A stretch of DNA of 60,985 bases, counting the filler, from Hausera hauseri (lineage: Eukaryota), in NCBI GenBank assembly GCA_046269625.1. It is 11 parts of 11 records of this genome, joined end to end, with 100 filler letters (N's around TTAATTAATTAA, not from the genome) between each part and the next. Parts side by side here need not be neighbours in the genome. Positions count along the whole stretch, not along the records: positions 1 to 4,566 come from JBJURY010525235.1; 10 more parts are not named here. One strand, written 5' to 3'. Below the pieces are notes generated by a model. That model worked only from the letters and a program-made list of their open reading frames with translations. It made no database searches and was not told the DNA's origin. A program made the position numbers and the translations under genes. Shown here one piece after another: positions 1 through 35,856 of the stretch. Within the stretch, counting starts at the first letter, position 1; every line of letters starts with the position of its first letter.

Positions 1-1043
1 TCCAAAACAATCAACTCGTAAAATTATCAAAAAAATGATTAAAATCATAGTACCATAGAAGATAATGGTGCTCCATAAGCCACTATAGTCATTACAGGAC
101 AATAAAGTGTTAAAAATTCTATTTGTTTATCTATGGAATTGTTCAAACGGTACAAAATACCAAATCCAGTCAATATAAGGCCGATCACCGTCGAATAAAT
201 AAGACTCCTCTAAAATCTAATTGAAAATATGGAATAAAAATGTTACCCTCTTTTGTGAATAAAAATAAAACACCAACGCAACAAACCCATTAACAATTGT
301 AGAAATAACATTGGTGAAAACAATTGGTATGTCACGTACTAGAAGACCGTATTTCAACCAACTTAAGGAACTAAAACAAAAAATAACATTATGAAATGAA
401 ATATATCAAACGATGATATGTTTGCACTGTATGGAAAAAACGAAAACGTATCTGACGTCTTCCGATTTTTGATATTTCGAATGATCAATCTGTGTCAACA
501 TTAAAACAGTTCATCATAATCTAATACACAAATACAAAAATACACCATTTTGGATAAAAGCGAATAATGAAGCTGTAATGCCGAATATATCAGTAAGTGA
601 GATCATTTCCTTCAAAAATTAGCGGGTATCTGTGTATATTGCGAGTGTTAGAAATAAAAATTGAGAAACATTACCCTAATTACAAAAAAAATTCGAGTCT
701 ACACAAAAAGTAGAAAATAAATTTTATTTCGTTAAAACATCGCTTACGTTTATTTTTTACTACTTAGGTGAGCAGCAAAAATCCAAACCGTGTTGTTTAA
801 AGAATATCTGAAGGACACTATAACGGTTTTGTCTTTTTGCTATTCAATGTGCAATGGTGTTACATTAAGATTACAGTTAGGCTTTCCAGATTTCGTTTTA
901 AAATACGGGATAAAATCCGGACAAACAAATATGGCTCATCTAGCGTTACCCGATTCTGTTTGAAAATAAAGGGCAAAAGCCGTACAAACGAATTGTTCCA
1001 GGTATATAATTGATATCCGAATTTTATTAATCGGAAATAATTC

Positions 1044-1733
1044 TGTTAGTAGTTGAAGGTGGACCCTATCCAACACCCAACTATAATAAAAATGCAATTA
1101 ATTTAACAATAGTATTAGCAGATAAGTTCTAACGTTCTCGTTAGAATCTTTGCACCAATTTAGAATGCGTGTACAGCGTGCTGTGCCTTGCGTAGTTTAA
1201 AAACAATTCTCGACCTAACTATGAAATTTAATATGATTTTAATGCTTAGTGTAGTACAAGTCCCTCGTAATGAGCGACGAAAAACTATAGAAGAATTTAA
1301 ATATATAAAATTTTATTATCAACAAAAGTAAATTACTGATAGAATAACAACTGAATATTTACACGATCAATCAGAGGAATAAGTTTGTTCAAGTCTTTCT
1401 TTATCAGTGGGTTAGCTCTACGAATTCGATTTTCTGTCCGTCGTCGATGATATCTGGCGTTTATATAGTAGTTTTAGACACATTGATTTACAGACGGTTT
1501 TCCTTAAATTTCACGTGAATTTTTTTCAATTCTAATTGATTTATCCGATTAAGTACACGTATTCGATAGATTTTCTCAGATTTGTATACAATTTATTTAC
1601 GTTTTCTAAACTTCCGTAGATTGGTTTAATTATTCAATGTATTGTAATCGATTTATTATTGTTTCGCTTTCGGTTTCGATTAGCAAGTTCATTTTCATTT
1701 ACATATTTACAACGGGCGACCACTTTCATAACA
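1044..1733 (-). repeat. 3' LTR (about 690 bp)
   Basis: Minus strand begins TGTTA at 1733 and ends TAACA at 1044; directly follows a purine tract; contains TATATAAA (~1461-1468) and AATAAA (~1312-1317); its last ~230 bp match 59610-59853 in reverse. Confidence 0.85.
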
Positions 1734-1914
1734 TTTCTCCTCCCTGAACGGCACTCTCGGATGTGCCCATTGCGTCAGTAGAGGTGTTGCGTAATCTGTC
1801 CATTCGTCCGCGTAAGTCCACTTCCGAATCTGTTTCGTTAGAGGGTGACTGCGAGTCAATAAAGTAGGATGTAGTGGCCTGTTTGGACAATATCTCCACT
1901 ATTTTTTTATTCAC
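1726..1914 (-). CDS. Short ORF, in-frame continuation of the RING ORF after a single TAG, ending at the PPT/LTR boundary
   Basis: TAG(1921) AAT GGA GTG(1914) is one frame; the ORF ends ..AVQGGEML across the PPT. Confidence 0.4.
   Translation of the reverse strand: MNKKIVEILSKQATTSYFIDSQSPSNETDSEVDLRGRMDRLRNTSTDAMGTSESAVQGGEML
1734..1745 (-). promoter_or_regulatory. Polypurine tract (AGGGAGGAGAAA)
   Basis: All-purine run abutting the TG start of the LTR. Confidence 0.8.
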
Positions 1915-1920
1915 TCCATT

Positions 1921-2529
1921 CTAGTAGTATCTCAGCCTTGTAGCTTCAGCTTTGCATACTGGGCAGGTCGTTTTCCCATTTTTGAGGGTCCACGTTTCTA
2001 TGCAGTATCTGCAGTATTTATGACTGCAGTCCTTGTTATCTAGGACCACGAAACCTTGATAGAGATCAGCATCACAAACGGGGCATTCTTCTTTTTCAGC
2101 TGCGTCGATGTTCACAAGGTTTTCATCCACTTCTATTCTTTCAAATACCAGTCCTTTCTTATTTTGGTATAAGTATCCGTACAATCTCTTTTGATTTGGG
2201 TTTATTGAGCTTTTCTTTGGGTCATCGGATACTGCGACTAAGGTCCATTCGACGATGTTTTGTTTGTCCAAATCGGGTACTCCAGTCTTCTTGTACTGTC
2301 TTTTTAGTTGAATCCTAACTTTGGTATCCACGGGAATTGTCAGTCTATTAGTACCACTCTTTGATTGGAATATTGGGCCTAAGTATCTGCCAATAGTGTG
2401 ATCTTCTTTGGCATATCCGTTTGCACTCACTATTCTTCTTGGAACGGTGGATACGTAAAATATGGCTTTTTTGATTTTCCCTTTGCTATAGTATTCGGCC
2501 ATGACAAGAATTCTTTTATATTCTTTCAC
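1921..2529 (-). CDS. Retroelement-encoded C3HC4 RING finger protein (putative E3 ligase); frame is open from about 2802
   Basis: CPVC-x13-C-S-H-KY-C-RY-C-x11-CPVC at the C-terminus. Confidence 0.8.
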   Translation of the reverse strand: MKEYKRILVMAEYYSKGKIKKAIFYVSTVPRRIVSANGYAKEDHTIGRYLGPIFQSKSGTNRLTIPVDTKVRIQLKRQYKKTGVPDLDKQNIVEWTLVAVSDDPKKSSINPNQKRLYGYLYQNKKGLVFERIEVDENLVNIDAAEKEECPVCDADLYQGFVVLDNKDCSHKYCRYCIETWTLKNGKTTCPVCKAEATRLRYY

Positions 2530-2684
2530 TTCGTCAAATTCTGTGACTATAATTGGTGTATCTTCTTCCCAGTTCTTTCGAAGAACATTAACTTCCGTCT
2601 TAAGGGTTTTGGGCTTAGTAGTTTCTAGTAGATTTTCTCTTTCTTCTTCCCATTTTTTTTGATTCGATATTCTTTTCTGATCAT

Positions 2685-3668
2685 TTATGGGTTTCTCGGG
2701 AAGTAGGTTATCTGTCGCTGGGCCTTTGCTGGTCTTGCTTCTTTTTTGTTGATGTAGTCCAGGAAAGAGGTCTTTGTCTTTTGCCTCTTCGATTTCTCTG
2801 GATTATCAGCTCTTACTGTTACTTCTTCTTGAGTTTTACTGGTTGATGGTTTCTGTTGATTGCTTTGAACTTCTGTGGGGTTTTTATAGACTGTTATTCG
2901 GAATTGGTTATGCTCACGGGTTTCGATCTGTCGATAACTAGGGTATTCACTAAACCCTTTTCGGAATTTTTGCATCAGTGCCTTGGGGTTGTTGTCAGAC
3001 ATCGCATTTTGTACACGGTTTCTGGGTTTCCATTCGTGATGCCATAGTAATGAGTTATAGATATCCTTTATAAATTTGGTCCTTTGGCTTGCTGTCATTA
3101 GCTTAGGGAATTTGAATCGATCGCCATTCATGGCTTCTAGCATCATCTTAAATTGCGATTCACGGGATGCTGATGGAAGCAGACATCCTCTTTTCCGCAT
3201 CAATGTATTTTCCACTTGGCTCACTACTGCTGGGTTCCGGCTCAATTCTCGAATTTCGGCTATGTATTCGTGCCTAATTTGTAGTCGTTCCAGTGCTTCG
3301 TGCACTCGAAATCCGGTAACGACGTATCCATATGAATAATGGCTTATATCTTCTTGGATCTCCAAAAAATCTTTTACCTTTTCGAGCTGTGACTTCGTGA
3401 TTCCAGTAACGTCGGGGAAAGTATCTTTTATCCTAGCCCGAGGTGCTATTATTTTGTTTATGATTTCCTCTCCATTAGTATTTCTGATGGAAACCTCAAT
3501 CGGAAAGTACCATTTATCGTCTTTTTCTCCATAGTTTACGGCCAATATCCGAGTATTTTGGCCATCTGAAATGAATCTGTAAGACTCTCTATTTTGCTCT
3601 ATCTCATATTTAGATGGTTTCTGTACATACAATAACGGGGGTAGCGGCTTCATTATTTTTTTTGCCAT
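2685..3668 (-). CDS. DEDDh (REXO4/ISG20-like) exonuclease-fold protein, catalytic motifs degenerate
   Basis: ILAVNY..IEVSIRNTNGEEIINKIIAP..DVTGITKSQL..DF.EIQ.DI...GYVVTGF follows the REX4/ISG20 pattern VALDCE..RVSIVN..G..LYD.YVKP..VSGI..HL..F..VQ..V..LL.GRILVGH; DxE is replaced by NYG. Confidence 0.65.
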   Translation of the reverse strand: MAKKIMKPLPPLLYVQKPSKYEIEQNRESYRFISDGQNTRILAVNYGEKDDKWYFPIEVSIRNTNGEEIINKIIAPRARIKDTFPDVTGITKSQLEKVKDFLEIQEDISHYSYGYVVTGFRVHEALERLQIRHEYIAEIRELSRNPAVVSQVENTLMRKRGCLLPSASRESQFKMMLEAMNGDRFKFPKLMTASQRTKFIKDIYNSLLWHHEWKPRNRVQNAMSDNNPKALMQKFRKGFSEYPSYRQIETREHNQFRITVYKNPTEVQSNQQKPSTSKTQEEVTVRADNPEKSKRQKTKTSFLDYINKKEARPAKAQRQITYFPRNP

Positions 3669-4245
3669 GTAATTTCGATCATGATTTTTGTCGGAAGGTC
3701 TGCAATTCTGATTTCTACAGCATAATTCATAAGGCTATAGCAACATAGCTCATAAGTGCTAAATTTCCATTGCTGTCCCCTTTTGTGTGCTCCAGGATTG
3801 TCCTACGATCCTCTATTGAATTTCTCCATTAGCGACATGTACGTATAATTGCTGATGTGTTGGCTCATGGAATTAGATCTTTTAAGAGGTATGCTCGTGC
3901 ATCCTTTGGACTTTGCATGGCGTATAATCGGATCAATCTATTCTCTTCTAAACCCAATTTTAGCCCGTTCGGTATTTTACTCTCTTGGTTGAATTCTAGA
4001 TAATTATGGTATTTCAAGTTTTCTCAAATTTGTCGGTATAGGTTTTTGAATAATGGCTTGGGGACATTGACGTGATGCTGCAAGATATTGTCGATATTGA
4101 AATTGGGATTGACTGATGAATTCTTCGCCTTCTCGGTCATACTTACTCTGCTGAAATAAAAATAAAGATTAATCCTAAGACAGATCATCGTTTTGGAACA
4201 GAAAATTTTCTCTGTCTGATAACAGGATAACCCGATCTGTAGTTG
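3669..4245 (-). pseudogene. Decayed readthrough extension / unknown domain upstream of the exonuclease-like domain
   Basis: QLQIGLSCYQT..CLRINLYFYFSRVSM, IDNILQHHVNV and YVHVANGEIQ*RIVGQSW align with contig 3 QLQIGLFYHQT..CFRIDPYFVFSFKMVSM, VDKFLQGHATV and FIHLADGEVYYRIEDQRW. Confidence 0.7.
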
Positions 4246-4254
4246 TCAGGTTAT
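4227..4254 (-). promoter_or_regulatory. Putative stop-codon readthrough signal UGA-CAA-CUA within a 9-bp hairpin
   Basis: Sense ATAACCTGACAACTACAGATCGGGTTAT; identical 28-mer at 10562-10589. Confidence 0.75.
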
Positions 4255-4566
4255 GCTATCATAAGGTCCGTCTCGGTGCCTGTTTACCCATTTATCTCCC
4301 TTATAATTTTTACAGCGTTTGTTACATTTTTTGGGAACTATAAAAATCATCGCTGTTATTATGATAAGAACGAAAATTGACAAACTGAATATAGTTATTA
4401 TCGATAAATTACTCGGCTCAATAGAACTTTCCGTGGTGAATACATTTTGAGTACTGATATCTTTATATGGCATTACTCCAACCTTGTTGCCAAGAGTTCG
4501 TTCTGTAAAGGTTTTAGAGTTCTTACCCCTCGCAGTAATTTGGATTATATAGTCATGTTTTGGCCG
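4246..4566 (-). CDS. C-terminus of env-like type I membrane protein (FN3 end, TM helix, short basic tail)
   Basis: RPKHDYIIQITA then LSIITIFSLSIFVLIIITAMIFIV-PKKCNKRCK..DGPYDSIT*; homologous to 10581-10930; likely frameshifted near 4480-4510. Confidence 0.7.
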   Translation of the reverse strand, partial: RPKHDYIIQITARGKNSKTFTERTLGNKVGVMPYKDISTQNVFTTESSIEPSNLSIITIFSLSIFVLIIITAMIFIVPKKCNKRCKNYKGDKWVNRHRDGPYDSIT

Positions 4567-4666
4567 NNNNNNNNNNNNNNNNNNNNNNNNNNNNNNNNNN
4601 NNNNNNNNNNTTAATTAATTAANNNNNNNNNNNNNNNNNNNNNNNNNNNNNNNNNNNNNNNNNNNN
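4567..4666. other. Artificial contig-joining linker (N44-TTAATTAATTAA-N44), first of 10
   Basis: Same 100-nt spacer with stops in all six frames recurs at 9367-9466, 15803-15902, 22585-22684, 29256-29355, 35857-35956, 41700-41799, 46107-46206, 50270-50369, 56674-56773. Confidence 0.98.
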
Positions 4667-5382
4667 TGCTTGTTGGAGGTTGCATGTCCTGCTTGTATGC
4701 CCGTCCTTCTGGCACGACCAGCATTTCATCCTATTCTTTGCCTGCGTATTTTGCAGTTTGAAATCCCTCCTTTCCTGTCTTGGTTTGTCAAGTTTCTGCA
4801 TTGCCACATCCCGGTAACTCCGTCGACCCTCTGTAGTGTAATTTTTGATGTTTCTATCTCTTGCGTCTTCTTTGGCACTTCGTGAACTTTCTGTATTTTT
4901 TCTTTGATTTGTTCTAAGTTTTTTTGTCACTGCGGTTGATTTTTTTTTATATCCAAATCGTCACAACAGTGAATCATTACTTCTTCTGTTAGGGCTTCCA
5001 ATGTTACTTTGTGGCTAAAGATGCTCTTCGTTAACTGTTCAATTTTGTTGAAGTAGGCGGCCGGTTCTGCCCCCTCATTCTGTAGTCAAAAGCCTCCTGC
5101 AGATCTCCACACAGTGTTGTCGGTTTTGAGAAAGCTTTTCTCAACCGGTTTTGGTAATCTTTCACCTTCTGGCTCACCAGATTGTATTTCACCTGTGATT
5201 ATTCTGCCAAAATGCACAAGACCGCGGTTTTCCAGTCCGTCTCCAACATCTTTATGAAGTCTAAGTATTTCTCGCATTTTCCAATAAAGGTTTCCACGTT
5301 GTCGCCTTTCTAAAATTCTCTTGGCATCAATTTCTTGTCGAAGAAGTTTCTTGAAGCGTTGATCGCCATGTGAGTAGATCAC
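4667..5382 (-). pseudogene. LTR retrotransposon gag remnant with CCHC zinc knuckle
   Basis: CWSCQKDGHTSRTC (Cx2Cx4Hx4C) at about 4683-4724; broken frames upstream. Confidence 0.75.
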
Positions 5383-5997
5383 GTGTCTACAATCCCAACC
5401 TCAACCTGACTTGATTATTGTAAAATAGAATTATTCATAAAAGATTTATTATAAAAGTTTTTATAACATTTATCACCTTCACTCCGGAAATGAGTCTTAT
5501 TTTCCTTCTTTTTTGAATTTCCTGACTTTCTGTTGGTTGTTTATTGAATTACTTTTAAATTAAATTTAAACCTTAATATCCGTTTCAATTTCTCCTCGCA
5601 GTGTTGAAGTTTCTTATTGTTAGACAAAGTTCTATATTCTTACAACAGTAATATCATTGAATGAAATAAGTAATTAGGCACTGTAACAATAGTGTTAATA
5701 TTAAAAAAGAGAGACTTGTTAAATATTCTGTAACTAAAAAGCCCGTCCAAAAAATATGACTCGATATGCAATTTGTTATCGGCAATAATTACTTTAATTT
5801 TTGTTTTGATGTGACGCCCAACAACTCATTTCTACTCACCCGCCTGAAGAAATTCTGTCTATTTTACAACTATATGCTTCTCGGTTTTCATCTTGTGAGA
5901 TTCAGTACGGTTTTGAAATTCTGTATACGAATGCTGAAGTCGATTTTAAGGAAGCTTACATTTCTCGTCGAGCTGTCCATTTTGAACNNNNNNNNNN

Positions 5998-7493
5998 CTA
6001 ATCCCCACTCTTTAGCTAATATCTTTCGTGAGCAAATTGAGAATTTTACTGATATGGGTAGCGGATGGAAGATGTTAAGATTTTAAAGTACTCTTTCCAC
6101 ATAGTAAAAACAAGCCCACTACCTTATTTGTCTGGAAGGTCTTATCTGTCAACACCTGACGCTTTAAGAAATGCAACGGCCGTTGTTAATGTACGGAATG
6201 ACGATAATTTGTGTTTCTTATACTTATATTATGAGGATGCACAGCTTATCAGGTCAAAGTATAGATGCAGTACTCTTTTGGATTACATGTTGGTATACAT
6301 GAAACTCGATGTATATTTGTTAGATGTTCTTTAACGATTTAGAAAGGAGGTTAAGTTGCAGGATGGATTAGGGGCGGCTAGTTTTGTTTTCGTTCCCGGA
6401 TTATCTTTGGCAACAGCACTGAAAACAAGTCCTTTTAAGACTGAGTTCCTTCAAGATCCTGAAATGTACAGTTTCTTCCAATCGGGTATTCGCCGTGATA
6501 TGAATTTTGTGAATAAACATAGAGTTACCACTAATGAAAGCATTAGTATCTTGTACATAGATGTAAATAGTTTGTATGTCTGGGCTTTATAGCAACCTTT
6601 ACCATTTGCTAATTTGACTTGGATTTATGATGAAGATAAGGTAAATAATCTGACTGAACAATTGCCTTTTGTTGACACTCAATTAGATCAACTACCTTTA
6701 GCTCCAATCAATCAATGTCCTCCTGGTTCGAAAGTTAAGAAATTGTTGCCGACACATGAGCGTAAATCCAACTATGTTATTCACTATTCGGCTTATACAA
6801 TTGTACATCGAGTTATGTGCTGCTCAGTTTGACCAGATTATAACTTTAAGGATTCTATAGATACAAATACTGCTAAGACGGCTTTAGCGAATAATGCTTT
6901 TGAGAAGAACAACAGCCTTATGCTAGCAAGGCCAGTTTAAAGATAGTTTTATTATAGCCGATGATGTAGTTGCCGTTCTACTTGATAAAGACATGGTTAC
7001 ATTATATAGGCCCTCGTACGTTGGTCACGCCGTACTTGATTTTTCTTAGTTACGGATGTACGAGGTAAATTATATTGAGTTGAAATCTTATGGACTACAG
7101 TTTAATTGTGAACTTAATATTATTGCTGGTGACACAGGCATCCTTTTCCTTGTATGCCGTGATGTTGATTTGCAATCACAGCTCTCGCAAGCAATGATAG
7201 CTAATGAACAGTTGGACACTTCGAACTATGATAAAAGTGATCCGTTATACTCAACTCGTTTTGCATCTGTAATAGAAAAATTTATGGACGAGAGTAAGAG
7301 CTGTATCGATTATCAAGAGGGGATTTTCCTACAGACGAAATCATACTCACTGAAAACTCAAAGCAAACCAGTCTTTAAATGTAAAAGCATCAATCTCAGA
7401 CAGACATACTTACAGTTGAACAGCTACCTACAATCATATAAAACAGGTTGTACGACCATTGTGGATCAGAAGCGAAATGTACTGCAACAATAA
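5998..7493 (+). pseudogene. Polinton/adintovirus-type protein-primed DNA polymerase B relic (AGDT variant)
   Basis: SGW, VVNVRNDDNLCFLY, Y.KLDVYLL.DV, GIR, LYIDVNSLY, KLL, IAGDT, LDTSNY..PLYS; many stops and internal deletions. Confidence 0.85.
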
Positions 7494-7499
7494 TTTCTG

Positions 7500-9366
7500 T
7501 GTAAGACCAGAATTTCCCAAGGAGGACTATATTTAATTCAAGGCGTTCGAGAAGAAGATCAAGGTCCAAGTAGTTATCTGTTGCGACTTAGAAGCTATTC
7601 TCCGGCCAATTCACAGCTGCAATTCCAGGCCTCAACATAGCAGCACAATGGACAATGAACCATTTCTATTCAGAGGTCCAAGCGCAGCAGCACATTCCAT
7701 GAAACGACTTAAAGATGTGGCTCATAAGCTTGTGCCTGTAGTGTTCCACAACCTCAGTGGTTATGATTCCCACTTCATTATTCGCGAACTGAGCAACATT
7801 GGAGGAAACATTGATATCATTCCCAATAGTAAGGAAAAATACATCACTTTCACCAAGCATGTAGGCCGCATCAGGCTTTGCTTCATAGACAACTTCCGCT
7901 TCATGAGCTAGTCACTGGATAGTTTAGTGAAGAACCTCCCTGCAGAAGAACTCAAGGAGACGAAGCGGTTTTTCCCCACTGCATTTGACCTGGTCAAGAG
8001 GAAAGGGTGTTTACTTATGACTGCATAAACTAATGGGAAACACTGGATGAGACCTCATTGCCGGACAAGAAGGACTTTTACAGTATCCTTTGTGATTCCC
8101 ATATCAGTGATGCTGACTACCAGCATGCCTAGAATGTCTGGCATGCATTCCAATGCCGAAAATTAGGGGAATACAGCGACATATACCTCAAGATGGACGT
8201 GCTGCTGCTCACAGATATCTGTGAGAGTTTCAGGGATGTCACAATGAAGAGCCATGCTTTGTATCCGGCTCATTTCTTTACGGCTCCGAGGATGAGCTGC
8301 ACAGCTATGCTGAGATATACCGGCATAAGGCTGCAGATCATCAAGAATTATGACATGATCCTTATTATCGAGAGAGGCATTAGAGGCGGAATATGCCAGA
8401 TTATTCACCGGTATAGCGAGGCCAACAGCAAGTATATGGCCCAGTATGATCCATCAAAGAAATCCTCATATATATAATATCTGCATGACATCAACTTGTA
8501 TGGATATGCAATGAGCGCCCCATTACCGTATGATAACTTAAAATAAGTCGAAAATCCTGAAAACATCTCTATATTTGACCTGGATCCCACTGAAGATATG
8601 GGATACATTCCGGAGGTGGATATGGAATATTGTGCTTCCATCTACGCAAGGCATCAACAGCTGCCTTTACTCCCTGACAGCAGGCCTCTGCCCCATGGAA
8701 AGTATAAGAAGCTGCTGTGTTATCTGGGTAATAGGGAGAGGTATGTATTTCACTACATCAATCTCCAGCAGGCATTTAAATATGGACTTCGTATTACCAA
8801 GATCCATAGTACCCTCTAGTTCAGCCAGTCAATGTGGGTGCAGCCTTACATAGGTCTCAATACGAAACTGCGAACAAATGCCAAGAACGATTTTGAGAAG
8901 GACCAGTTCAAGCTTTACAGCAACTCGATCTTTGGCAAGACCATGGAGAATATCCGAAACAAGATCAACATCGAACTGGTATGTGACTGGAAACGAGCAA
9001 AGAAGCTTATTTCCAAGCCTAACTTCCACAGCAGCATTATATGTGCTGAAAACTTGGTCAGCATTTATATTCTGAAAATATCACTGGTATTCAACAAGCC
9101 CATATCTGTGGGCATGGTTATCCTCGACCTGTCAAAAACCCTGATGTATCATTTCCACTACGATATCATGGTCCCCAAGTTCAAGTCCATGCAGCTGATG
9201 TATATGGATACTGATAGTTTCATCTATCAGATTCATACAGAGGACATTTATGAGGACTTTGCTCAGTTGGCAGAACATATGGATACCTGGGACTATCCGA
9301 AGGATCATCCCAACTATTCAATTGCCAACAAAAAGGTCCTTGGGAAATTCAAAGACGAGGTGAATG
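7500..9366 (+). pseudogene. Polinton/adintovirus-type PolB relic (canonical YMDTDS type), truncated by contig end
   Basis: VVFHNLSGYDSHFII, FIDNFRFM, DVLLLTDICESFR, GIRGGI, NLYGYAM..PLP, KLYSNSIFGKTMEN, YMDTDS, GKFKDE; several stops and frameshifts. Confidence 0.92.
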
Positions 9367-9466
9367 NNNNNNNNNNNNNNNNNNNNNNNNNNNNNNNNNN
9401 NNNNNNNNNNTTAATTAATTAANNNNNNNNNNNNNNNNNNNNNNNNNNNNNNNNNNNNNNNNNNNN

Positions 9467-10478
9467 TTCTGCCCAAATTACTATTCATTGATTCGATCAT
9501 CAGCTTGAAGAAGACTTCTGGTGTAGTTGGCCTACTTTTTCCTTGTACGGTCTTTTCCATTTGTTCCTGGACAATTGAGTGAGTAGCTGTTTCCCTAAGT
9601 CCGGTAATATTTGCATCGGATATCCCTAATAGCTCGATTTCCCGTTTTACGTTGTATCCCATTATCATACACCCGTAGAGGCAATGGTCTAACTCAGAAC
9701 GGACCTGTTGAATGTCTTTTCCGCGTATAAGTTGTTACTTTCGTAAACCAGTTACTTCCGCATATGATTCTTGAACATGTTTCCGTGGATTTATAATGGT
9801 AGAGTAAAGCTCAGTTCCATCTCTTTCTCTAATAGATACTTTGATAGCTATCCCATACCAACCGTCTCCTCTGCAACAATCTATCGCCATAATTCTTATA
9901 TTCCGACCATCCTGTACTAGCCTATATGACTGGTAATGTTTGTCTTTTTCCGCTTTGGTTGGGATTTGTTTGAATGCTAAAACTGGCATGCCTAAGTTGC
10001 AGTTTTTCTTATGTATCACCTCAAACATGAGTTTAACAGGGAGGATCGCTATTCTAAATTCTAGGCCATAATCGATACTTTCTAGGCCTTGTCCGTTTAT
10101 TTTCAATGTACTAAATCGGTATTGGCGTCCTTCATTACAGTTCCATCGTTGGTCCTCTATTCTATAGTATACTTCACCATCAGCTAGATGGATAAATATA
10201 TCTTCCACTTTGGCGATACTATTCCGGATCACTTCCTTAAGGCCATACGACTTAGCTTGATTGTTTTCGCGCATCGCGTATAGGAAAACTTTGTGGTTCT
10301 CTTCGGTGGTACCTTTCAAGTCATTTGGTATTTCGTTTACTTTCCGGTATTCAACGTACACTTCTGTTTGTAATACGTCATTTATCCTTCTGTATATGGC
10401 TTTCGATTTGGGAATAAAGACCGTTGCGTGTCCTTGTAGGAATTTGTCGACTCTAATTCGGCTGATCATACTTACCAT
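9467..10478 (-). pseudogene. Unknown domain plus REXO4/ISG20-like exonuclease fold (one premature TAA at 9735)
   Basis: IMAIDCC..IKVSIRERDGTELYSTIINP..VTGLRK*QLIRGKD..V..L..LYGCMIMGYNV; homologous to 2685-3668; 9668 ORF is in the same frame. Confidence 0.7.
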
Positions 10479-10561
10479 TTTGAAAGAAAATACAAAATAT
10501 GGGTCAATCCTAAAACAAAGTATTGTTCTAAAAATGAAGCAATTCTTTGTTTGATGGTAGA

Positions 10562-10589
10562 ATAACCCGATCTGTAGTTGTCAGGTTAT
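10562..10589 (-). promoter_or_regulatory. Putative stop-codon readthrough signal UGA-CAA-CUA within a hairpin
   Basis: TGA at 10583-10581 is in frame, with no intervening stop, with the ATG at 10478. Confidence 0.78.
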
Positions 10590-11100
10590 TCCATCATTGA
10601 TTCCATCCTGTGGTACCATCACCCTTAATTCCCTCTCAGTGATTTTCTGACGCTTAATACAGCAATTTTGGTAATCAATCGACAAAACTCAATTAGAATT
10701 ATGAGAGCAAATATTGATGTTCCGATAATCGATATTAACGACAAGGTTGTCCGTTCGGTTAAATTTTCCGTTTTAGCAGTTGTTTTCATCTCACTTTCCG
10801 TTTCGTCATCGGTCAGTGAATTCGTGAAGACAATTTCGTTTAAGGTTCGTACCGTGAATGTTCTATTTTTTTATTTTCTGCACCTGCTTGTACGATGTAA
10901 TCCTTTTTAGGTTTCAAGTAGGTGCATTTGACCTGATGGCTACCCTTAGCCAGCGTTAATTTTTGATTGTAGTATATTGTTCGATAGTTTATCCTTACAT
11001 CGTGGTTAATTGCTTTTTCCAAAACAAAAGTTATTTCGCGCTGTTGTGTCCAGTATTTTATCGGAATTATTTCTAGATCCTTCTGAGGCAATCTATTCAT
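10581..11100 (-). pseudogene. Env-like protein C-terminal part: FN3-like domain, TM helix and tail (frameshifted)
   Basis: YLKPKKDYIVQAGAEN resembles the FN3 L.P.T.Y.V.V.A.N signature; TLSLISIIGTSIFALIILI is a TM; ends QDGINDGIT*. Confidence 0.65.
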
Positions 11101-11252
11101 TGGAATGATTCTGGCGGATGCATGAATGGTAGACTTTGTTTCCGTAGTTGTAATTCTACTTGTTATTAGAAGCGAATTCTGCTAAATCGAGTTTCTAAAT
11201 TAGTAGCTTCCTAGATAAATATTTGACTGGTTTGTTCTAACTTCATATAAAC

Positions 11253-12869
11253 CTAACTGAATCCTATATTTGTATTTCTGGGGCAACTTGCAACATCTTT
11301 TTGGCCGCTCGACGTCGATTTGGCAGTATTGTTGGTTGTGGACTGGTCGTCCTTTTTTAGAAACTGGACCGTGATTACTTGACCGTTAATTAATCGTCCT
11401 TTTGTGTTTATTTGAACGCAATTATCCTTCGGATTTTCTGTCACACTGGCTATATTTTCTTTTAGCATCCGCTTTACTAGGTCGATGGACTGGAGCATTT
11501 CGTTGGGTTTTATCTCACAATGCTTGTTCCAAGCAGGAACGACTAATTGGAATTGTGGTTTTGTTTTATAGACTTTAGATAAGTTCGGTAAGTATAATCG
11601 ATAGGTCAGATTATAAGTGTGTCCGAAGTCCGTATCGCAACATTGAGTATGTTCTCCTGGTTCGAAATCACAATTCTTTGCTTCTTTTGTTATCACATCC
11701 TCCAGGACAATTTGAAATCTTCCAAAATTGCGGTATGGTTTCTGTGCCTTAAATCCAACGCATGTGGAGTTCGGCAAGTAGTAATAGACTATGACTGATT
11801 GTAACAATGCAATATCCTTTTGCCTTTGGGTTTCTTCTGATCTTGATCCACTTTTCCATGCTTTATATACATTTTTTAATGTAGCTCCGTCGTGCCATCC
11901 TTGAGTTTGAGTTCTCGGAATACGAGAGGCAATTAACGTTAATACTAAAGCTATCTGTACGTACGATATCGATCTGGCAATTATTGAGGAAGTCTTTAAC
12001 TCAGGCTGACGTAAATTGTAACCTTTATTCCGCCGTATCTCGGTTTTAACAACTCTCTGTACTGACACGACTTCTTCATATTGTTTTCTTATTTGTCCCT
12101 GATATTCAAGCGATAACGGTTTTGCGACCTCCCAACATTTTTGCAGTCTTGTCTGCAAAACTTCGGCAAAATTTTGCTCGAGATCCTCGAGGTTCTTTTC
12201 GTAGGGCGTCATGCCTAGATCTGTGGGTAAGATTGCTTCCCATCCATACATCATAAAGAACGGAGTAAATCCTGTCGCAGGATGTAATGTCGTACTGATT
12301 GCGTATTGTGTTCCTTCTAGGAATTTGTCCCAATCCTTTTGGTCTTTTGCCACTACTGTTGATAATATCCGAATGACTGTCGCATTCATCCGTTCGACCA
12401 TTCCATTACATTGGCAATGATACGCGGTAGTAGTTAAACGTTCGATTTCAAACATCTTGGTAATTTTTTCAATTAATTTGCTTATGAAGTTCCTTCCTCT
12501 GTCTGTTAGGATCTGTTCCATTGGTCCGTATTTGCAGATAATTTTTCTTACCACTGCGTCGGCTAGTGTTTCCACTTTTTGATCCAATAATGCCACCAGT
12601 TCGACAAAATGTGTCAATCGATCCACGTATGTTAGAATATATCTGTTGTTTTTGTAAGTTTTATGTAAAGGTCCTACTATATTCACAGGCATGGCGTGCA
12701 TAGGTCTATCTGGTACGTTTATTGGTTTTAGTTTTGCTACGTAGCCTTTTGTCTTCTTTTGTTTCGTTGCGCAAACTTTGCACGCTCCTACCCAATTCTT
12801 TACGTCAATATAGATACTTGGCCAGTAGTATTTATTCAATATTCTTTCCAATGTCTTCTTCCAAGACAT
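11253..12869 (-). CDS. Gypsy integrase fused in frame to a signal-peptide-like segment and Cys-containing glycoprotein ectodomain
   Basis: YYWP..C..C, NIVGPL (first catalytic D is N), TDRGRNF, GMVERMN, TGFTPF; then ISYVQIALVLTLIAS and a domain with sequons NST, NLT, NLS, NNT. Confidence 0.85.
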   Translation of the reverse strand: MSWKKTLERILNKYYWPSIYIDVKNWVGACKVCATKQKKTKGYVAKLKPINVPDRPMHAMPVNIVGPLHKTYKNNRYILTYVDRLTHFVELVALLDQKVETLADAVVRKIICKYGPMEQILTDRGRNFISKLIEKITKMFEIERLTTTAYHCQCNGMVERMNATVIRILSTVVAKDQKDWDKFLEGTQYAISTTLHPATGFTPFFMMYGWEAILPTDLGMTPYEKNLEDLEQNFAEVLQTRLQKCWEVAKPLSLEYQGQIRKQYEEVVSVQRVVKTEIRRNKGYNLRQPELKTSSIIARSISYVQIALVLTLIASRIPRTQTQGWHDGATLKNVYKAWKSGSRSEETQRQKDIALLQSVIVYYYLPNSTCVGFKAQKPYRNFGRFQIVLEDVITKEAKNCDFEPGEHTQCCDTDFGHTYNLTYRLYLPNLSKVYKTKPQFQLVVPAWNKHCEIKPNEMLQSIDLVKRMLKENIASVTENPKDNCVQINTKGRLINGQVITVQFLKKDDQSTTNNTAKSTSSGQKDVASCPRNTNIGFS

Positions 12870-13199
12870 ATGTTCGGCTCAATGTAAAGCATGTTCGGCA
12901 ATGAGTAGTTCTGTGCGCATTTCTTTTGGAATAACTATTAATTGTTGTCAATTTCGTTCATAATACAGGATATTATCCTGGTTTGAGGCGTGATATTTAT
13001 GTCCGTGTTTCTGCAGGTGTTTTTTTAGTTGTCGTCCTTTGGGCATTTCGCCGTTCTGTGCGAACTTAACAATTTGCTGAATAACTTTATCTTTGGCTTG
13101 CTCGGCTGTAATTCTAATTGTTTTATCCATTATTAGAGTTCGTTGTAGTTCGATCATTTGTTCGATATGCTGCCTTTTTGCTATAGTAATTGCACTCGT

Positions 13200-15280
13200 T
13201 TTTGCCTTAAGCCTTGATAGTGCATCGGCGTCGACATGTTTATTTCCCGGTTTGTATTGAAATTCAATGTTATATCGTGAGATCTCTTCAATCCAACGGT
13301 TTAGTCTACATGTCGGATTATTGGCTCATCCTTTCAATGTCGTAACTGCCTTGTGGTCAGTTACTATTATAATCCTTTGTCCGTAGACATAGACATTAAA
13401 ATGTCATAATGTTTCCTTAACGGCTAACGTTTTTAATTTGGTAACCGAATAATTCTTTTCTGCTTTCTTTAGTGAACATCTACCATAGGCTATCGGGTGT
13501 TCTAGTTCCTCATCCTCTCGTTTTTGAGCTAATTCATAACCTATACCTTCTTTACTTGCATCTGTTTTACTGATGAATGGTACGTTGAAATCAGGGTATC
13601 TTAGGACCGGTTTGCTTGTTAAAATTTTCTTAATTTCGTCGAATGCCTTTTGCCCTATTTCCGTCCATCTCCACTTAGTTCCTTTCTTGAGTATGCGATA
13701 TAGTGGCGCATTGATTTTCGAATAGTCCGGTACGTAAGGGGCATAATATCCACATAGGCCTAGCCAATGCCTTAACTCTTTGGTTTTGATATTTTGTCTA
13801 ATAGTGACTTATCTGGTCTTGATCCTCCTTCTCCAACTATGTGTCCGAGGTATGATACTGCGTTCTTGGCCCATTTACATATCTTTGATTTAGTTTCAAA
13901 CCTGCTTGTTGCAACCGCATGAGAATATCTTCAATGTATTTTAAGTGTTCTTCTTCTGTTTTTGATGCTAACATCACATAGTCTAAGTACGCGAATGCAT
14001 GATCAAGTCCCATCAGCATCTTATTCATCATTTTATTAAAAATAGTTTGTCCTGTGGTGATGTCAAAATGCATAACATTAAATTCGTATACGTTATCGTG
14101 TGTTTTGAACGCGGTCTTATATCGATCTTTTTCTTTGATTTCCACTTGCCAGTATCCCGATTGTAAGTCGAGAGTGGTAAACCATTTTTCTCATGATAGT
14201 CTGTCTAAAGCTTCCTTTACTGATGGTAGGGGGAACGAGTCTTTCATCATCAGTGTGTTTAATGCCCCATAATCTATACAAAACGAATGTTTTGAATATT
14301 ATTTTTCTTAACCATAAGTATATGAGAGTACCATGATCAGTAGCTTTGTCGAATTATGTCGGCCTTTAACATTCGCTCGACTTCTTTAGTTATCTGCGGT
14401 CTCAATGAGTGAGGAGGCGGGTACCACTTGGGCATTTTCTTTTCTTCTAGATCGATCTCGCCATTTCAGCCGGGTTTCTTCCTTAATGGAATTGTTTATC
14501 ATAGTGCTTTTGCTCTACCTATGTTTTCTTCGTTTTGTGCAATTATCGAACTGTATTTGCATAATAATTCGTGGAACTTGTAATACCCTTCCGGAGAGAA
14601 TTTGGTTTCGACGTGAGGTGGAAATTCAGCGCACTTGTATGGATTTTCTTCTACTTTTATTGCCGATACCCTAGAAGTGTGACCTAGAGTAGTGTTAACG
14701 TGCAATCGTACGGGAATTGGTGCATTGTTCACTAATCTGATAGGTATTCGTCCCGTCACTACTCTACATAGAATATTGATAATCATGAGGTTTGGGTCGA
14801 TATTCTCTTGAGGTTCAAAATATACCGGCAGATCTTCGTCTTGGCAAATCTGTGCGAAAATTATCATTTCGGTCTTGGGCGGAATATCTTCGTCTACCGG
14901 AATCCATACTTCTCCCGATTTCCTTTCCTTTATTACTTTCGTCCCTTTTATTGGTTTGAGCTCAACTAATTTTCCATTATGTACATCAATTGCCATACCT
15001 GGTATCTGTTTCAATATATCACAACCTAACACTACATCGTCTATCAACTGGTCCATTACCTCGAATTCATGTTGAAGTGCTTGGCCCATCATATAAAAGG
15101 TAGGAGTCCATTTGAATTTCGGTTTCGATACCTGTCCAAATGCTTCTAATCTACCAGGGTCCGATAATAATGGTGAGAATAGTTGGTCGCGTAGTGTGAT
15201 TGGCATTGATTCGTGTTTTATAAACGACTTTTCTGATCCTGTGTCGATTAAGGCGTATACCTTCCAATCTTCGACGTATA
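13200..15280 (-). pseudogene. Gypsy pol: aspartic protease, dUTPase-like spacer, RT, RNase H (multiple stops and frameshifts)
   Basis: ALIDTGS, VVLGCDIL, LDLQSGYWQV, KTAF, PVLRYPDF, VTDHKA, YKPGNKHVDADALSR. Confidence 0.9.
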
Positions 15281-15902
15281 TTTAAGAAAGGGTCTTCCCT
15301 CTACTACAGTTCTGTGGCAATTTGATGTTATTTTTGACTGTTATAGTAAAGATTCTGTGTCCATTTATCGTTATTTCTGGGGATGAAATGATATCTTGCT
15401 TTAATTGTCTTAATTCTCCATTCGGGTACAAATCATTATTTGTTATTTCCGTGACGCGGTCGTCAATGAGTGGTTCTTGAGGTAAGGGGCCTGAGATCGA
15501 GCATAGCCTCGGGTTCTCCCAGATTGTTGATTTTGATTCTATGTGACGAGATATTCTTTTCGAGTACAATATTCCGTGGTTGTTTTCTGTTGGTTCTTTG
15601 TTGATAACATTCATTTTCCGTAGTACTCCGTATTGTTTTGTTTTTTCATAAGGGTCTTCATAGTTAATGGGCTTTTAATAGATTTCGGATCTACATGATA
15701 CTATCGATTTGCGGTCGCAGTCTTCATATATTGGCGCTGTTGGTGGCATGATGGGCAATGGTGCGTTTATTACTGAGTACATCCTGTGCATCCTTACTCT
15801 GGNNNNNNNNNNNNNNNNNNNNNNNNNNNNNNNNNNNNNNNNNNNNTTAATTAATTAANNNNNNNNNNNNNNNNNNNNNNNNNNNNNNNNNNNNNNNNNN
15901 NN

Positions 15903-17577
15903 CCTGTGTTGTCGCTGGCAGAAGTGGATTGTTTACATTAGCCTCGGTGCTAATAGTTAGCTGTCGTTGTTCTTGAGGGTTCAGTAAGGGTTCATTTGTT
16001 GCAGCGCTTTGAGTGGGCCTGGAAGAAGTCATCGTAGCAGGTGAGTGTTCCTGATTTAGTGTCAGATTAGGTCTTTGGGTGGGCGTTGCGTCATCGGTTT
16101 GCGACAGTGTTGGGTCCCTGGGTAATCGCGTCGCATCGTAGGTCAACAGTAGATCTTTAACTTCATCAACAGTTCGTAAAGAGAAACGTTTGCCCAAATT
16201 ATGTCTCGCCCATTTGGTAGCAATTATTAAAGGGGCCTCGAAAACCCCGCCAAGATCAGAGAGGAATTCTGTTTCATTTGAAATCTGTTCTTCGTAATGT
16301 TGTCTTAAAATACCAATGGTATTTTTGGCCCAACTTTTAGCATTGTTAGCGATCAGTTCACTCGTTTCTGGGGAGGGGTTAGCCGGTTTAATAATTGTCT
16401 CTAAATTGTTGGTAATCTTCTGAATAGCAGGAGGGAGACTCTCATCATTTGACACGTACTTAAGGTGATGTTTAGCTTTCAGGATTCTGTGCAAAGTCCT
16501 GACTTTAATGGTGAAATGTTCATCATTGGACGAATTGTGTGTCACCGTGGGCTCTGAATTGTTTTGGGGACTTACGTGATGTGGCCTCCGTTGTCTCCTG
16601 AAGTGGGTTGGGCCTCTGTTGTTATTATGGTGTTGATGATCCGATGTTTGTAGATGTTCAGTGGGTCGAGGGTTCTGTTGGGGACTCAAATGATGTGAGT
16701 CACGAGATCTCCTGGTCGAGGTCCGGTTTCTGTTCAAGTGGTCGTGGTCTTGATGCTGTTGTCTCCTACTCTGTCTGTGATTCTGTTCGTCAGGTGGGTG
16801 GAATGTTTCAGCAGGCCAGAAGTTTCTCTGAGGACTCACACGGCGTGGATGTCTGGGTGGAGTTGGACTTCTGTTGTTCCTGTGATACCGGTCATGAGGT
16901 GGGTGAAATGTTTCAGCAGGCCAGAAGTTTCTCTGAGGACTCGCACGACGTGGACGCCTGGGTGAGGCTGGACCTCTGTTGCTCCCATGATAACGGTCCT
17001 GAGGTGGGTGGAATGTTTCCGCAGGCCAGAAGTTTCTCTGAGGACTTGCATGACGGGGACGTCTAGGTGGGGTTGGACTTCTGTTGTTCCTGTGACGTCG
17101 ATCGTGAGGTGGGTGGAATGTTTCAGTAGGCAAGAAGTTTCTTCTGGGTGAGGCTGGAGGTCTGTTGTAGCTGTAGTCCTGGTCTTCAGGTCGATGGAGT
17201 GCCTCAGTAGGACAAAGGTTCTGCGCAGGACTCACATAACGTTGGTGTTGTCGTTCTCTAATTGGAGATGTGTTTGTGTTCCTTCTGTAGTGACTGTGGT
17301 GGTAAGATCGGCGCCCCCGCGCAGAGCCATTGGCAGGACGAAACCCGCCTCTGTCCCAAGTCCCATCCTCACGTGCTTGCCAGCGCCGAGATGGGCGTCC
17401 ACGAGTCACCGAGGCATAAGTCCTGTGTTCAGGCCTGGAGCTCGGAGGGTCATGTCTCTCCCTCTCATCCCTCAGGGGGCTTCTGTAGGGCTGGTTCTGC
17501 TCGTGGAATCTTCTTTTACCACGGTGGTAATGGACCGTGGTCCACGGATCTTCATGTTGGTAAGGCATTTTTTTCAA
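15903..17577 (-). CDS. PLE ORF1 N-terminal part (R/S/P/H-rich, 35-aa repeats); continues in frame at 22508
   Basis: ..LLPATTQ joins AHPPPPPQHRPTVTTAGT-MTDSIP across the terminal overlap; joined ORF about 917 aa. Confidence 0.85.
16560..17150 (-). repeat. 105-bp (35-aa) tandem repeat in ORF1
   Basis: GGAATGTTTC..CAGGCCAGAAGTTTCTCTGAGGACT units near 16800, 16905, 17010, 17115 plus degenerate copies; protein SPQRNFWPAETFHPP. Confidence 0.9.
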
Positions 17578-17733
17578 AAAATGTTGTTTAAAATAGAGCT
17601 GAGCAAAAAATGTCAGTAGGCTGCTAAAAGCTGCAGAATTGTTGGAAAAAATGCAAAAAAAAGAAATGAAACTGTGGCTTGTTTTTTGCCTTTTAGCTTT
17701 TTTAATAAAAACTATTTACAATATTTACAAGAT

Positions 17734-17797
17734 ACAGCATTTATAAAGGACAACGTTTCGGCTTATGATCGAGCCTTCTTCAGGTCAAAAATGCTGT
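17734..17797 (-). ncRNA. Type I hammerhead ribozyme
   Basis: Sense ACAGCATTT-TTGAC-CTGAAGA-A-GGCT(loop)AGCC-GAAAC-GTTG-TC-..-AAATGCTGT: CUGANGA and GAAA cores, stem II GGCT/AGCC, outer stem ACAGCATTT/AAATGCTGT. Confidence 0.85.
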
Positions 17798-17826
17798 TTC
17801 AAACAGTAACTGGAACCTGCTACCCC

Positions 17827-17909
17827 TATATATAGGAAAAAATTCAAACTGTAGCTTTGAAGCAGGAAAGAGCCCCGATTGGCCCAAGGTGCATGGTTTA
17901 GTCCAATCA
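17827..17909 (-). promoter_or_regulatory. Putative Pol II promoter of the PLE (TATATATA box and two CCAAT boxes)
   Basis: TATATATA ~17827-17834, about 30 nt upstream of the hammerhead; CCAAT/ATTGG at ~17878 and ~17903. Confidence 0.55.
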
Positions 17910-18384
17910 TGTGCCAGGGGTGTGGCCAGGTGTCGATTTAAATGCACCTGTTAGGTCTGGCATTATGTTGAGGCAATAGAAAGTCCTTTTGTGAGAACCA
18001 TATAACTGGGAAAAGTATAGTTAATACTATATGGCTTCAGCACATAAACAAGGTATAATAAAATCAGGCATCAAACAATATAAAGGGTAAATAGAACAAA
18101 AATTAGCTTCAAATTACATTCCAAAGTAACGTCCAAATAAGGTTGTTCATGAAATAAAGTAAAAGTGTTGTTAAACCATCTTGTGATAAAATAAAATATT
18201 TTTTTACACACAGGACTCACATGATGTTTGGGCTGCAGAGGTCACAAAACTGTCAAACTAAAAGCGACAGCCCCATCTAGTGGACAAAGTAAGTAATTAC
18301 AAAATAAAATGAAATAAAATAAAGGAGTCCCCTGTTTGGGTTTATTAAGGTGAAGAACATGAAAATCTAGTGGTTTTGGAGTGG

Positions 18385-19085
18385 CTTAAGTTTAGGAGGG
18401 GAGAAGTAGGCTTTATTTAAAAAAACTTGGTTAAGTTTAGGGCTGATCTGGTAATAGGTTCAGGTTGGAAATGGTTAAGTTTAGTTTGGTGACTTGGTTA
18501 GGCTCTCAAGTTGGTTAAATTTAGGTTAAATTAGGGTTAATGTGGATCAGATTTGTTGGTTAGGGTTAGGAGCAAGTAAATATAGGTTCAGTAAGACACC
18601 AATTCGGTTTTAGGGTCAGATTGAAGTCAGGTTAAGTGTCATTCATGGAGCGAGATTGCCCTCTTGTGGACAACCCGGAGAACTGAACAAAAAGAGAGGT
18701 TATTTTATAGACTAAATTATTTGATCCTGATTATTTTAATAATAGATGGTTAGGTTTAGGGCATACTTGAGATGGTTCAGGTGAAAATTGGTTAAGCTTA
18801 GGGTTTGGTATCCTGGTTAGGCATTAAAACTGATTGAATTTTTGTTTTGTGTTTAATTCAAATTAATCTGGATAAGGGTTATGGTTAGGTTAAGGAAAGT
18901 TGAATGTAGGTACATTAAAGCACAGATTAGGTTTTAAGGTCGTATTGGTAAATGTTTTAGGTTTAGGAATAAGAGCGAGATTGCCCTCCAAATGGATTAG
19001 GTTTTGTAGGAATGATATTGGGGCCATCAGAGGGGCAAGGACTGAAGGTGGGACTCAATTAAGAAGGCACTGGCTAGGTTAGGTG
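18385..19085 (+). repeat. Degenerate TTAGGG/TTAGG-rich tract with an internal ~324-bp diverged duplication
   Basis: Many TTAGGG/TTAGGT words; GAGCGAGATTGCCCTC at ~18648 and ~18972. Confidence 0.7.
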
Positions 19086-19095
19086 TGAGGGAGTG

Positions 19096-19128
19096 GAAAA
19101 ATCTGCGGCCGCAGGCCGCAGATTTTTC
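19096..19128. other. Perfect 15-bp stem hairpin downstream of PLE ORF2
   Basis: GAAAAATCTGCGGCC-GCA-GGCCGCAGATTTTTC. Confidence 0.9.
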
Positions 19129-19200
19129 ACGTGTCAGAGATCCTGTTACCAGAGGCAAAGGATCCCCAAATGCACTGGCTCATCTAGAGTGAGTACCCAC

Positions 19201-22508: not shown

Positions 22509-22731
22509 CTGTGTTGTCGCTGGCAGAAGTGGATTGTTTACATTAGCCTCGGTGCTAATAGTTAGCTGTCGTTGTTCTTGAGGGNNNNNNNNNNNNNNNN
22601 NNNNNNNNNNNNNNNNNNNNNNNNNNNNTTAATTAATTAANNNNNNNNNNNNNNNNNNNNNNNNNNNNNNNNNNNNNNNNNNNNGTAAATGAACTTCAGA
22701 TATTATTTAAACCTGTAAAAAACTATAATGG

Positions 22732-25900: not shown

Positions 25901-28895
<2,995 letters not shown>

Positions 28896-34867: not shown

Positions 34868-35856
34868 ATGATTTTATACGTATTTGGTGGAATATTCCTC
34901 CTACTGTATCTATGGTCATTGAGTTGTAGGAAAGAGAAAATTCCAGATGGATTACGATTATTACCATTGGAAAAAGGATTTCCAATACTTGGAATAATAC
35001 CATACATCAAAGAGCCAATGCATCATTATTTTATGAAACTTGTGAAGAAACATGGTCCAATTTTCAAATTCCGAATGGGTTTACGCGAAATGATCGTCAT
35101 GAATGATTATGCCATGCTGAAGAAGACAGTGAAAGCCAATGGAGATGTTTATGCTGGTCGATGGCATACAAAACTTCTTGATATTTTCTGTGGCAACTGT
35201 GGCGTTTTAGGAGTTGATGGATACGCCTGGGCTACTCACAGATCGTTCATTTTGAAGGTTCTACGAGATTTCGGATTGGGAAAATCAAGATCCAATGAAA
35301 TAGTCCAAAGTGAATGTGAACAATTGATGATTGAATTGAAAAGTCTGAAAGGCAAACCGATGAATTTTGGTGATTCGATACCAATTTATACGGCAAATAT
35401 CATATCAAAATTTATCATGAACAAACGATTTGATAGGGAAGATGAACGAATAAAAACAATTGAAGAGGATGTTGCAAAATCGTCGAAACAAGCCAATTGG
35501 ATGCAAAATGTGCTTTTAATGTTTCCTCAAACTGATTATTCATGGATCATTTGTAAAATCGTTACTATGATTGACTCAGACCGTAAAAATGTTGAGAAAA
35601 TTAAGGACTATTTCAGAAAAGAAATTAAATCCCATTCTGAAAATTTGGATCCCCATGGTGATGGAAATGACTTAATGGATCGATTTCTTATGGAACAGAA
35701 AGAAACAGTTAAAAAAATTGGACGAGAAGACACATTCACAGAAATGCAATTAATTCGAAGTTCGTACGAGTTATTTATGGCAGGATATGAAACTACATCA
35801 ACCACACTCAATTGGAGTATGATGTTCCTTGCTAAGTATCCTGACATTCAGGAAAA
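34868..35856 (+). CDS. Cytochrome P450, CYP2 clan, 3'-truncated by contig end
   Basis: N-terminal TM, GFPILG, KHGPIF, W..HRSF..LRDFGLGK, DLMDRFL, I-helix ELFMAGYETTSTTLNW..LAKYPDIQE. Confidence 0.93.

Follow-up and report, generated by a model that had tools for sequence, protein, structure and literature searches.

A predicted REX4/ISG20-type pseudonuclease–RING fusion as an accessory gene of an LTR retrotransposon

We analysed a 60,985-nucleotide stretch of DNA (the window) from Hausera hauseri (GenBank assembly GCA_046269625.1) and found two decayed members of a gene, here called ORF-X, whose predicted product is a REX4/ISG20-type pseudonuclease–RING fusion and which we read as an accessory gene of an LTR retrotransposon. 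The window consists of eleven animal-type contigs linked by N44-TTAATTAATTAA-N44, and contigs flanking a linker are not to be taken as genomic neighbours. Contig 1 (1-4566) carries ORF-X, broken, at ~1729-4140 on the minus strand; contig 3 (9467-15802) carries the second sequence. A preliminary description of this DNA had presented 2685..3668 (minus strand) as a feature in its own right. This open reading frame of 327 aa, whose first codon is an internal Met, is genuine coding sequence of the family but only the middle fragment of a gene of ~800 codons, as shown by the three-piece alignment to a natural homolog and by the stops in the window copy.

That homolog, P0002, provided the reference for the layout of ORF-X. 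Searching the 227-residue nuclease-like domain against 1.84 billion representative proteins returned six matches at E <=0.001. P0002 (E 2e-49, 870 aa) has a single uninterrupted frame with the full domain set, in the order N-terminal domain, DEDDh-like domain, poorly conserved linker, second domain and C3HC4 RING, and P0003 (E 2e-21, 333 aa) is partial. Together with the sequences from contigs 1 and 3 they make up a family set of four, two of them partial. Two REX4 proteins also matched, at E 1.4e-5 and 3.6e-4. In P0006, an unnamed metagenome protein of 237 aa, some motifs are family-like, D-x-E is intact at ExoI and Glu occupies the place of the ExoII Asp. The captured nuclease may have an active relative in this protein, which served, on its sequence, as an outgroup and was left out of family counts. 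P0004 was dropped as a repetitive protein with unrelated Pfam noise. Word-index protein searches yielded no related sequence among 659 and 666 candidates with the window ORF and, with P0002, one of 7,290, namely P0002 itself. Likewise, none of 103 pattern matches in viral contigs and none of 195 in JGI metagenomes was a related locus, and a 20-base junction pattern gave no matches.

The alignment of P0002 with contig 1 falls into three pieces (4191-3868, 3872-2766 and 2700-1729), and relative to P0002 the contig 1 gene has suffered two frame changes and six stops (4026, 3815, 3761, 3752, 3737 and 1923). As read here, the window copies are by themselves unable to encode the full ORF-X protein. 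All parts of the contig 1 gene lie on the minus strand. The N-terminal domain (3669..4140, ~150 aa) is broken by a frame change near 3870 and by the five stops from 4026 to 3737. The DEDDh-like domain follows at 3024..3584 and, beyond a frame change between 2766 and 2700, a conserved domain precedes the RING in another frame (2086..2517). The C3HC4 RING finger itself (1954..2085) retains eight zinc ligands and exceeds Pfam gathering thresholds (PF13639 at 31.7 bits, PF00097 at 26.7 bits), as does the RING of P0002, and its matches in the PDB are mostly E3s. The pre-RING domain and RING share 50% identity with P0002 across 270 aligned residues. After the stop at 1923, a C-terminal tail (1729..1923) crosses the polypurine tract into the first bases of the LTR, and the C-terminal residues of P0002 are identical. 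Judged from this C-terminus, P0002 is probably element-borne, because it ends in the very residues encoded across the tract/LTR junction of contig 1.

The N-terminal domain has less to compare with. An atlas search gave no usable match, and the only other hits, to ATP synthase gamma and none better than E 0.03, were judged to be chance. Using hhalign, comparison with E. coli AlkB and with a six-sequence AlkB alignment gave probabilities of 0.07% and 0.05%, values that reflect at most six AlkB sequences and profiles alone. A scan of viral contigs found no AlkB sequences.

ORF-X closes the gene order of a Ty3/Gypsy-type LTR retrotransposon, terminating at the polypurine tract. The element reads pol, an env-position membrane-protein ORF, a short junction, ORF-X, polypurine tract and LTR. 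Two features mark it as Ty3/Gypsy. Contig 3 carries a broken pol (12050..15281, minus strand) with protease, RT, RNase H and integrase in Ty3/Gypsy order, the RT being closest to Ty3 RT (E 1e-17). Contig 1 has the polypurine tract (1734..1745, minus strand) followed by a likely 3' LTR (1044..1733, minus strand) of 690 bp, with 5-bp inverted ends, that starts with TG and finishes with CA. Contig 1 is assigned to such an element because it shares with contig 3 the end of the membrane ORF, the junction and ORF-X. The LTR is present as a single copy within contig 1, and contigs 1 and 3 both terminate inside the element; we found no long repeats within either contig and no Rfam matches in 1-15802. 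The distal 270 bp of the LTR match contig 11 (59596-59861, opposite strand) at 75%.

The env-position ORF is broken on contig 3 (10580..12050, minus strand), where a hydrophobic N-terminal segment, a Cys-containing part, a Ser/Thr-rich stretch and a hydrophobic C-terminal segment can be discerned and where it lies in frame with integrase. Its 3' end is also present upstream of ORF-X on contig 1 (4245..4566, minus strand), with a hydrophobic segment at 4407-4336 and a short tail; contigs 1 and 3 share this end. Over both stretches (10580-12050 and 4245-4566) it has the look of a single-pass membrane protein with a Ser/Thr-rich stalk and no assigned fusogen. No credible Pfam, PHROG or PDB family match was obtained. 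There was a weak match (E 0.15) to the N-terminal domain of purple acid phosphatase, which we take to be fibronectin III-like.

Between the membrane-protein ORF and ORF-X lies a conserved non-coding junction (4137..4262, minus strand). It matches contig 3 (10466-10589) at 75% in DNA over 110 bp, including 28 identical bases (4227-4254), and both copies contain a pyrimidine tract and GTAAGT-ATG; on contig 1 the tract ends in AG at 4151 and GTAAGT-ATG occupies 4146-4138. P0002 and P0003 have Val-Ser at the position corresponding to the junction. This arrangement may act as a splice or expression signal for ORF-X, driving a spliced or subgenomic message.

Alignments from run X1, possibly the source sample, fit a large repeat family. 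In all, 5,264 contigs of this run align on contig 1, most at 80-95% identity (339 at 99% or above, 956 at 95-99%, 1,930 at 90-95% and 2,039 under 90%). Summed depth stays at 3-6 over positions 1-765 and across the element mostly lies between hundreds and tens of thousands; these figures do not equate to copy number. Within the LTR, summed depth falls to 26-34 at 1378-1683, as against thousands at both ends, from which we conclude that the LTR interior varies among copies.

Further features lie on other contigs of the window. The region 15903-22584 has a 77-bp exact terminal overlap suggesting tandem or circular assembly; by eye we take it to be a Penelope-like element, with RT and a GIY-YIG-like C-terminus, an SGNH-like ORF and Arg/His/Pro repeats. 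Decayed fragments at 5760-9366 and 48943-50269, which resemble a protein-primed DNA polymerase B of Polinton/adintovirus type, are repeated between contigs 2 and 9 at 75-85%. A long intron-free stretch with an 816-codon open frame (25901-28895) lies between a repeated 256-bp segment at an earlier position in its contig and the end of that contig; to our eye its MATH-like piece followed by the 816-codon frame resembles USP7, possibly as a retrocopy. Finally, 34841-35856 is presumably an intron-free cytochrome P450-like open frame truncated by its contig end.

We turned to the nuclease-like domain with evidence drawn from the family and evidence drawn from a structure model. A single domain sequence found SDN1 at E 0.029, and a family-only profile built from the four sequences and run against the PDB reached SDN1 at 7.7e-5, ISG20L2 at 1.9e-4, DnaQ at 2.8e-4, PolC at 1.8e-3 and ISG20 at 0.57. 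This family-only evidence establishes the DnaQ-like DEDDh fold as the predicted fold of the domain. The assignment to a REX4/ISG20 scaffold in the preliminary description thus lies beyond chance, given this profile, the E values to REX4 and an hhalign probability of 95.8% between the domain and a REX4 alignment. A language-model search returned RNase_T clusters at 0.94, 0.93 and 0.92. Pfam RNase_T (PF00929), which had been proposed as a check of the fold, gave no matches for the window ORFs, P0001, P0002 or P0003, but profile and structure comparisons both recovered DEDDh.

The structure model of 2937-3593 was built from a ten-row alignment, four rows of which were REX4 and one P0006. Its mean pLDDT is 65, rising to 79-91 at residues 11-110 and falling under 50 at 130-163 and 185-219. 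Foldseek matched it to ISG20L2 and ISG20 at E 1e-8 to 3e-8, and the comparison with ISG20 reached a VIA Z of 16.2 (rmsd 3.0 over 150 residues), with the next entry in a wide search at 12.7. The ISG20 ranking and the ExoIII register taken from this model are not independent, because of the REX4 rows in its alignment and the regions with pLDDT under 50. A single-sequence model of P0002 (pLDDT 31) was discarded. Structure thus places ISG20 and ISG20L2 first, with REX4 rows in the model and no REXO4 structure among the matches listed, whereas sequence ranks REX4 and SDN1 higher. The specific tie to antiviral ISG20 drawn in the preliminary description is not supported, as REX4, SDN1 and ISG20L2 are roughly on a par in the sequence matches and ISG20 stands at E 0.57.

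Across this scaffold the catalytic residues are missing. At the ExoI equivalent of contig 1 (3528..3536), N45-Y-G47 replaces D-x-E, with a Glu one residue further. At ExoII (3294..3311), F120 stands for His and A125 for Asp. At ExoIII (3081..3098), anchoring on the last helix gives M191/R196 and the MAFFT register gives F/T, with neither His nor Asp either way, although the register is uncertain. On contig 3, ExoI reads DCC (motif 9887-9873) and ExoII reads GYNVKRE (9662-9639, minus strand), as had been quoted earlier along with NYG and the GFRVHEA region of contig 1. All these sites are on the minus strand. D-x-E is absent from all four family sequences (NYG in contig 1, then NTG, NLA and, in contig 3, DCC). 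In alignment A4 only contig 3 keeps Asp in the ExoI Asp column, where contig 1, P0002 and P0003 have Asn; read ungapped, the ExoI Glu column holds Gly in contig 1 and P0002, Ala in P0003 and Cys in contig 3. The ExoII Asp column has Ala in contig 1, Met in P0002 and Glu in contig 3, and P0003 stops short of it. Whichever of the two registers is used, the ExoIII His and Asp are missing from the two readable sequences, contig 1 and P0002, the register being uncertain; ExoIII lies outside the available sequence of contig 3 and P0003. One HMMER alignment moves the ExoI register by two and still finds at most one acid.

No family member (0/4) thus has the full D-E-D-H-D set, and contig 1 and P0002 have none of its five residues. 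Inspection of the active site across the family bears out the picture of a DEDDh fold that has lost its catalytic set. The claim that both window copies had lost it stands in full for contig 1, ExoIII included. Contig 3 (second member, 9467..10475, minus strand), which preserves the N-terminal and DEDDh-like domains with an in-frame stop at 9737-9735, ends before ExoIII; its catalytic loss is partial, since one Asp at ExoI and a Glu at ExoII remain. Some residual metal binding by the DEDDh-like domain may persist. Loss of the ExoI Asp appears to predate the split of the other members, because its replacement by Asn is common to three sequences that are 42-56% identical.

Since the fold is kept, the cutting residues are gone and a RING is joined to it, the ORF-X protein is more likely to bind than to cleave and may mark host proteins for degradation. 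The retrotransposon position and the RING fusion, both absent from the preliminary description, likely change the function to be expected. We give roughly even credence to the proposal that the protein is an RNA-binding adaptor, bringing ubiquitin-ligase activity to host proteins on element RNA or RNP. An ancestral element would have captured a cellular REX4/REXO1-type exonuclease, whose active site then decayed while the fold and a new Arg/His/Tyr set were retained. The ORF-X protein would be produced from a subgenomic or spliced RNA. Its dead DEDDh domain would bind RNA, by analogy with Exuperantia, Exd1 and Maelstrom, and its RING would recruit an E2 and mark a host silencing or RNA-decay factor. 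RING fingers of the C3HC4 type commonly function as E3 ligases, and an E3 activity is presumed here. The capture step and the RNA-binding and E3 steps draw on four sequences, two of them partial, and are inferred from these.

Which surface the domain offers bears on this proposal. Thirty-five columns are invariant where at least three family sequences are present, and the family-invariant residues that differ from two REX4 rows include R40, R62, E68, R77, H110 and Y113. With 30 K/R against 26 D/E, the domain is barely basic, as in REX4, and this near-neutral charge would count against RNA binding. It is in keeping with a protein-binding decoy or substrate receptor that mimics a host REX4/REXO1-type enzyme, enters its complexes and lets the RING ubiquitylate the partners. 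Preservation of the fold with loss of the active site and the fusion to a RING also suit such a receptor, and planarian Burro elements offer a parallel in that several ubiquitination-related domains are described for them in the available part of PMC6431247. However, a protein that mimics a REX4 surface is not what the family-invariant residues suggest, since they differ from REX4, and several of them are Arg, fitting nucleic-acid contact. We consider the decoy possible but hold it with distinctly less confidence than the RNA-binding adaptor.

A further question is whether the lost residues reflect no more than decay or relaxed drift. Active elements would then encode an exonuclease that works, its dead versions being passengers or mere structural spacers for the RING protein. 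In line with this explanation, stops and frame changes make pseudogenes of both window copies, and the family search yielded just four sequences. Yet P0002 runs uninterrupted across 870 codons with 0/5 catalytic residues, the ExoI Asn common to three members points to loss before their split, and scaffold positions are invariant. The two window copies, which the preliminary description treated as a pair, are homologous but distant, with 37% and 28% identity in two core pieces and DNA that can be aligned over only 110 bp, and we class them as two distant families; core identities among all members are 28-56%. Over 150 ungapped codons, identity at codon positions 1, 2 and 3 is 49, 63 and 33%, as against 27-28% for random pairs, and for the N-terminal domain (84 codons) the values are 50, 58 and 31%. 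The protein sequence is maintained although third positions have come close to saturation. This pattern fits purifying selection and indicates constraint at the protein level, by a crude comparison of few sequences rather than a dN/dS estimate. The constraint would date from the split of the two families, and the span spent as a dead enzyme may be shorter. Together with an intact P0002 that also lacks the catalytic set, it supports the earlier suggestion of a captured DEDDh nuclease kept in inactive form, and we regard mere decay as improbable.

Least probable of all, we think, is that nuclease activity persists in a rearranged or weakened site and serves to trim the ends of element RNA or cDNA, a role proposed for the DEDDy ORF3 of rotifers: this reading could draw on the N-x-x-E found at ExoI in three of the four sequences, on the Asp and Glu retained in contig 3, on the acid of an I-R-E motif present in all three sequences that cover it, on P0006, which combines family-like features with an intact D-x-E, and on the active-site switch named for Maelstrom in the title of PMC2628886, but no sequence has more than two acids at the four canonical positions, the two most complete ones (contig 1 and P0002) have Ala/Met at the ExoII Asp and Arg/Cys or Thr/Ser at ExoIII, and the substitutions vary among members.

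Building on the RNA-binding adaptor, we offer as a tentative conjecture, one we would not yet bet on, that an animal Gypsy lineage combined a disarmed host exoribonuclease with a RING into an RNA-guided E3 ligase whose targets would lie in the piRNA or RNA-decay machinery. If true, it would be a retrotransposon counterpart of the viral accessory proteins that destroy host restriction factors. Counter-silencing by animal LTR retrotransposons is largely an open field, and most of their 3' accessory genes lack annotation; a conserved pseudonuclease–RING fusion would provide a testable candidate for an element-encoded counter-defence protein, and the target that it ubiquitylates would identify the host factor it opposes.

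How does ORF-X compare with known systems? In our searches of the open literature, neither a catalytically dead DEDDh domain nor a DEDDh–RING fusion came up for an LTR element; prior annotation is possible in subscription journals, Repbase Reports and supplements, which lay outside that scope. PMC4408406 and PMC8278194 were set aside as precedents, as 'DEDD' in the available portions of both denotes RNase H. A DnaQ-like domain is a known accessory of LTR elements according to the accessible text of PMC6338049. The nearest parallel comes from bdelloid rotifers, where the Juno and Vesta LTR retrotransposons, and Athena/Terminon, carry a DEDDy exonuclease ORF3 (Rodriguez et al. 2017, PMC5408684, as far as the available text goes). 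Like ORF-X, it is an extra gene with a 3'-5' exonuclease fold downstream of pol in an LTR element. The rotifer protein is, in the same source, RNase D-like with its invariant residues intact (DEED) and replaces env, whereas ORF-X is DEDDh/REX4-like, lacks the catalytic set, lies downstream of a membrane-protein ORF and is fused to two domains and a RING. We therefore rejected the rotifer-type DEDDy class (RNase D/Rrp6-like) for ORF-X, whose best matches are DEDDh and whose catalytic residues are absent.

Burro/GYPSM1, giant planarian Gypsy elements, resemble the host of ORF-X as Gypsy-type elements with captured ubiquitination-linked domains, including a RING-related motif (PMC6431247). In Burro, however, these domains lie within a 4,873-aa ORF1 polyprotein for which the available text of that paper names no exonuclease domain, whereas ORF-X is a separate 3' gene. 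With the cellular exoribonucleases REX4/REXO4, ISG20, ISG20L2 and SDN1, ORF-X shares a scaffold from first strand to last helix, with 27-30% identity to REX4 over ~113 residues; unlike them, it lacks D-x-E, the ExoII Asp and the ExoIII His and Asp, falls below Pfam detection and is element-borne.

Dead DEDD domains provide the other half of the comparison. Maelstrom of metazoans is an inactive protein without DEDD that binds ssRNA (PMC4408791, in the part available), and Exuperantia and Exd1 are likewise dead DEDD domains that bind RNA (10.1101/2025.08.03.668247, bioRxiv, in the part available). ORF-X resembles all three in keeping a nuclease fold without catalytic residues, and their RNA binding is the model for what we propose. 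They differ in being independently derived host proteins and weaker structural matches (Exuperantia Z 9.1, MAEL Z 7.5-7.9 as against 16.2 for ISG20). The Maelstrom ECHC zinc motif is absent from the family, where H110 is the sole invariant among Cys/His columns, and the likeness to Maelstrom suggested earlier does not extend beyond analogy. Exonuclease ORFs captured by LTR elements and DEDD domains gone dead are thus each already known. DEDD nucleases have repeatedly turned into binding modules, and ORF-X would be an instance of this from a mobile element.
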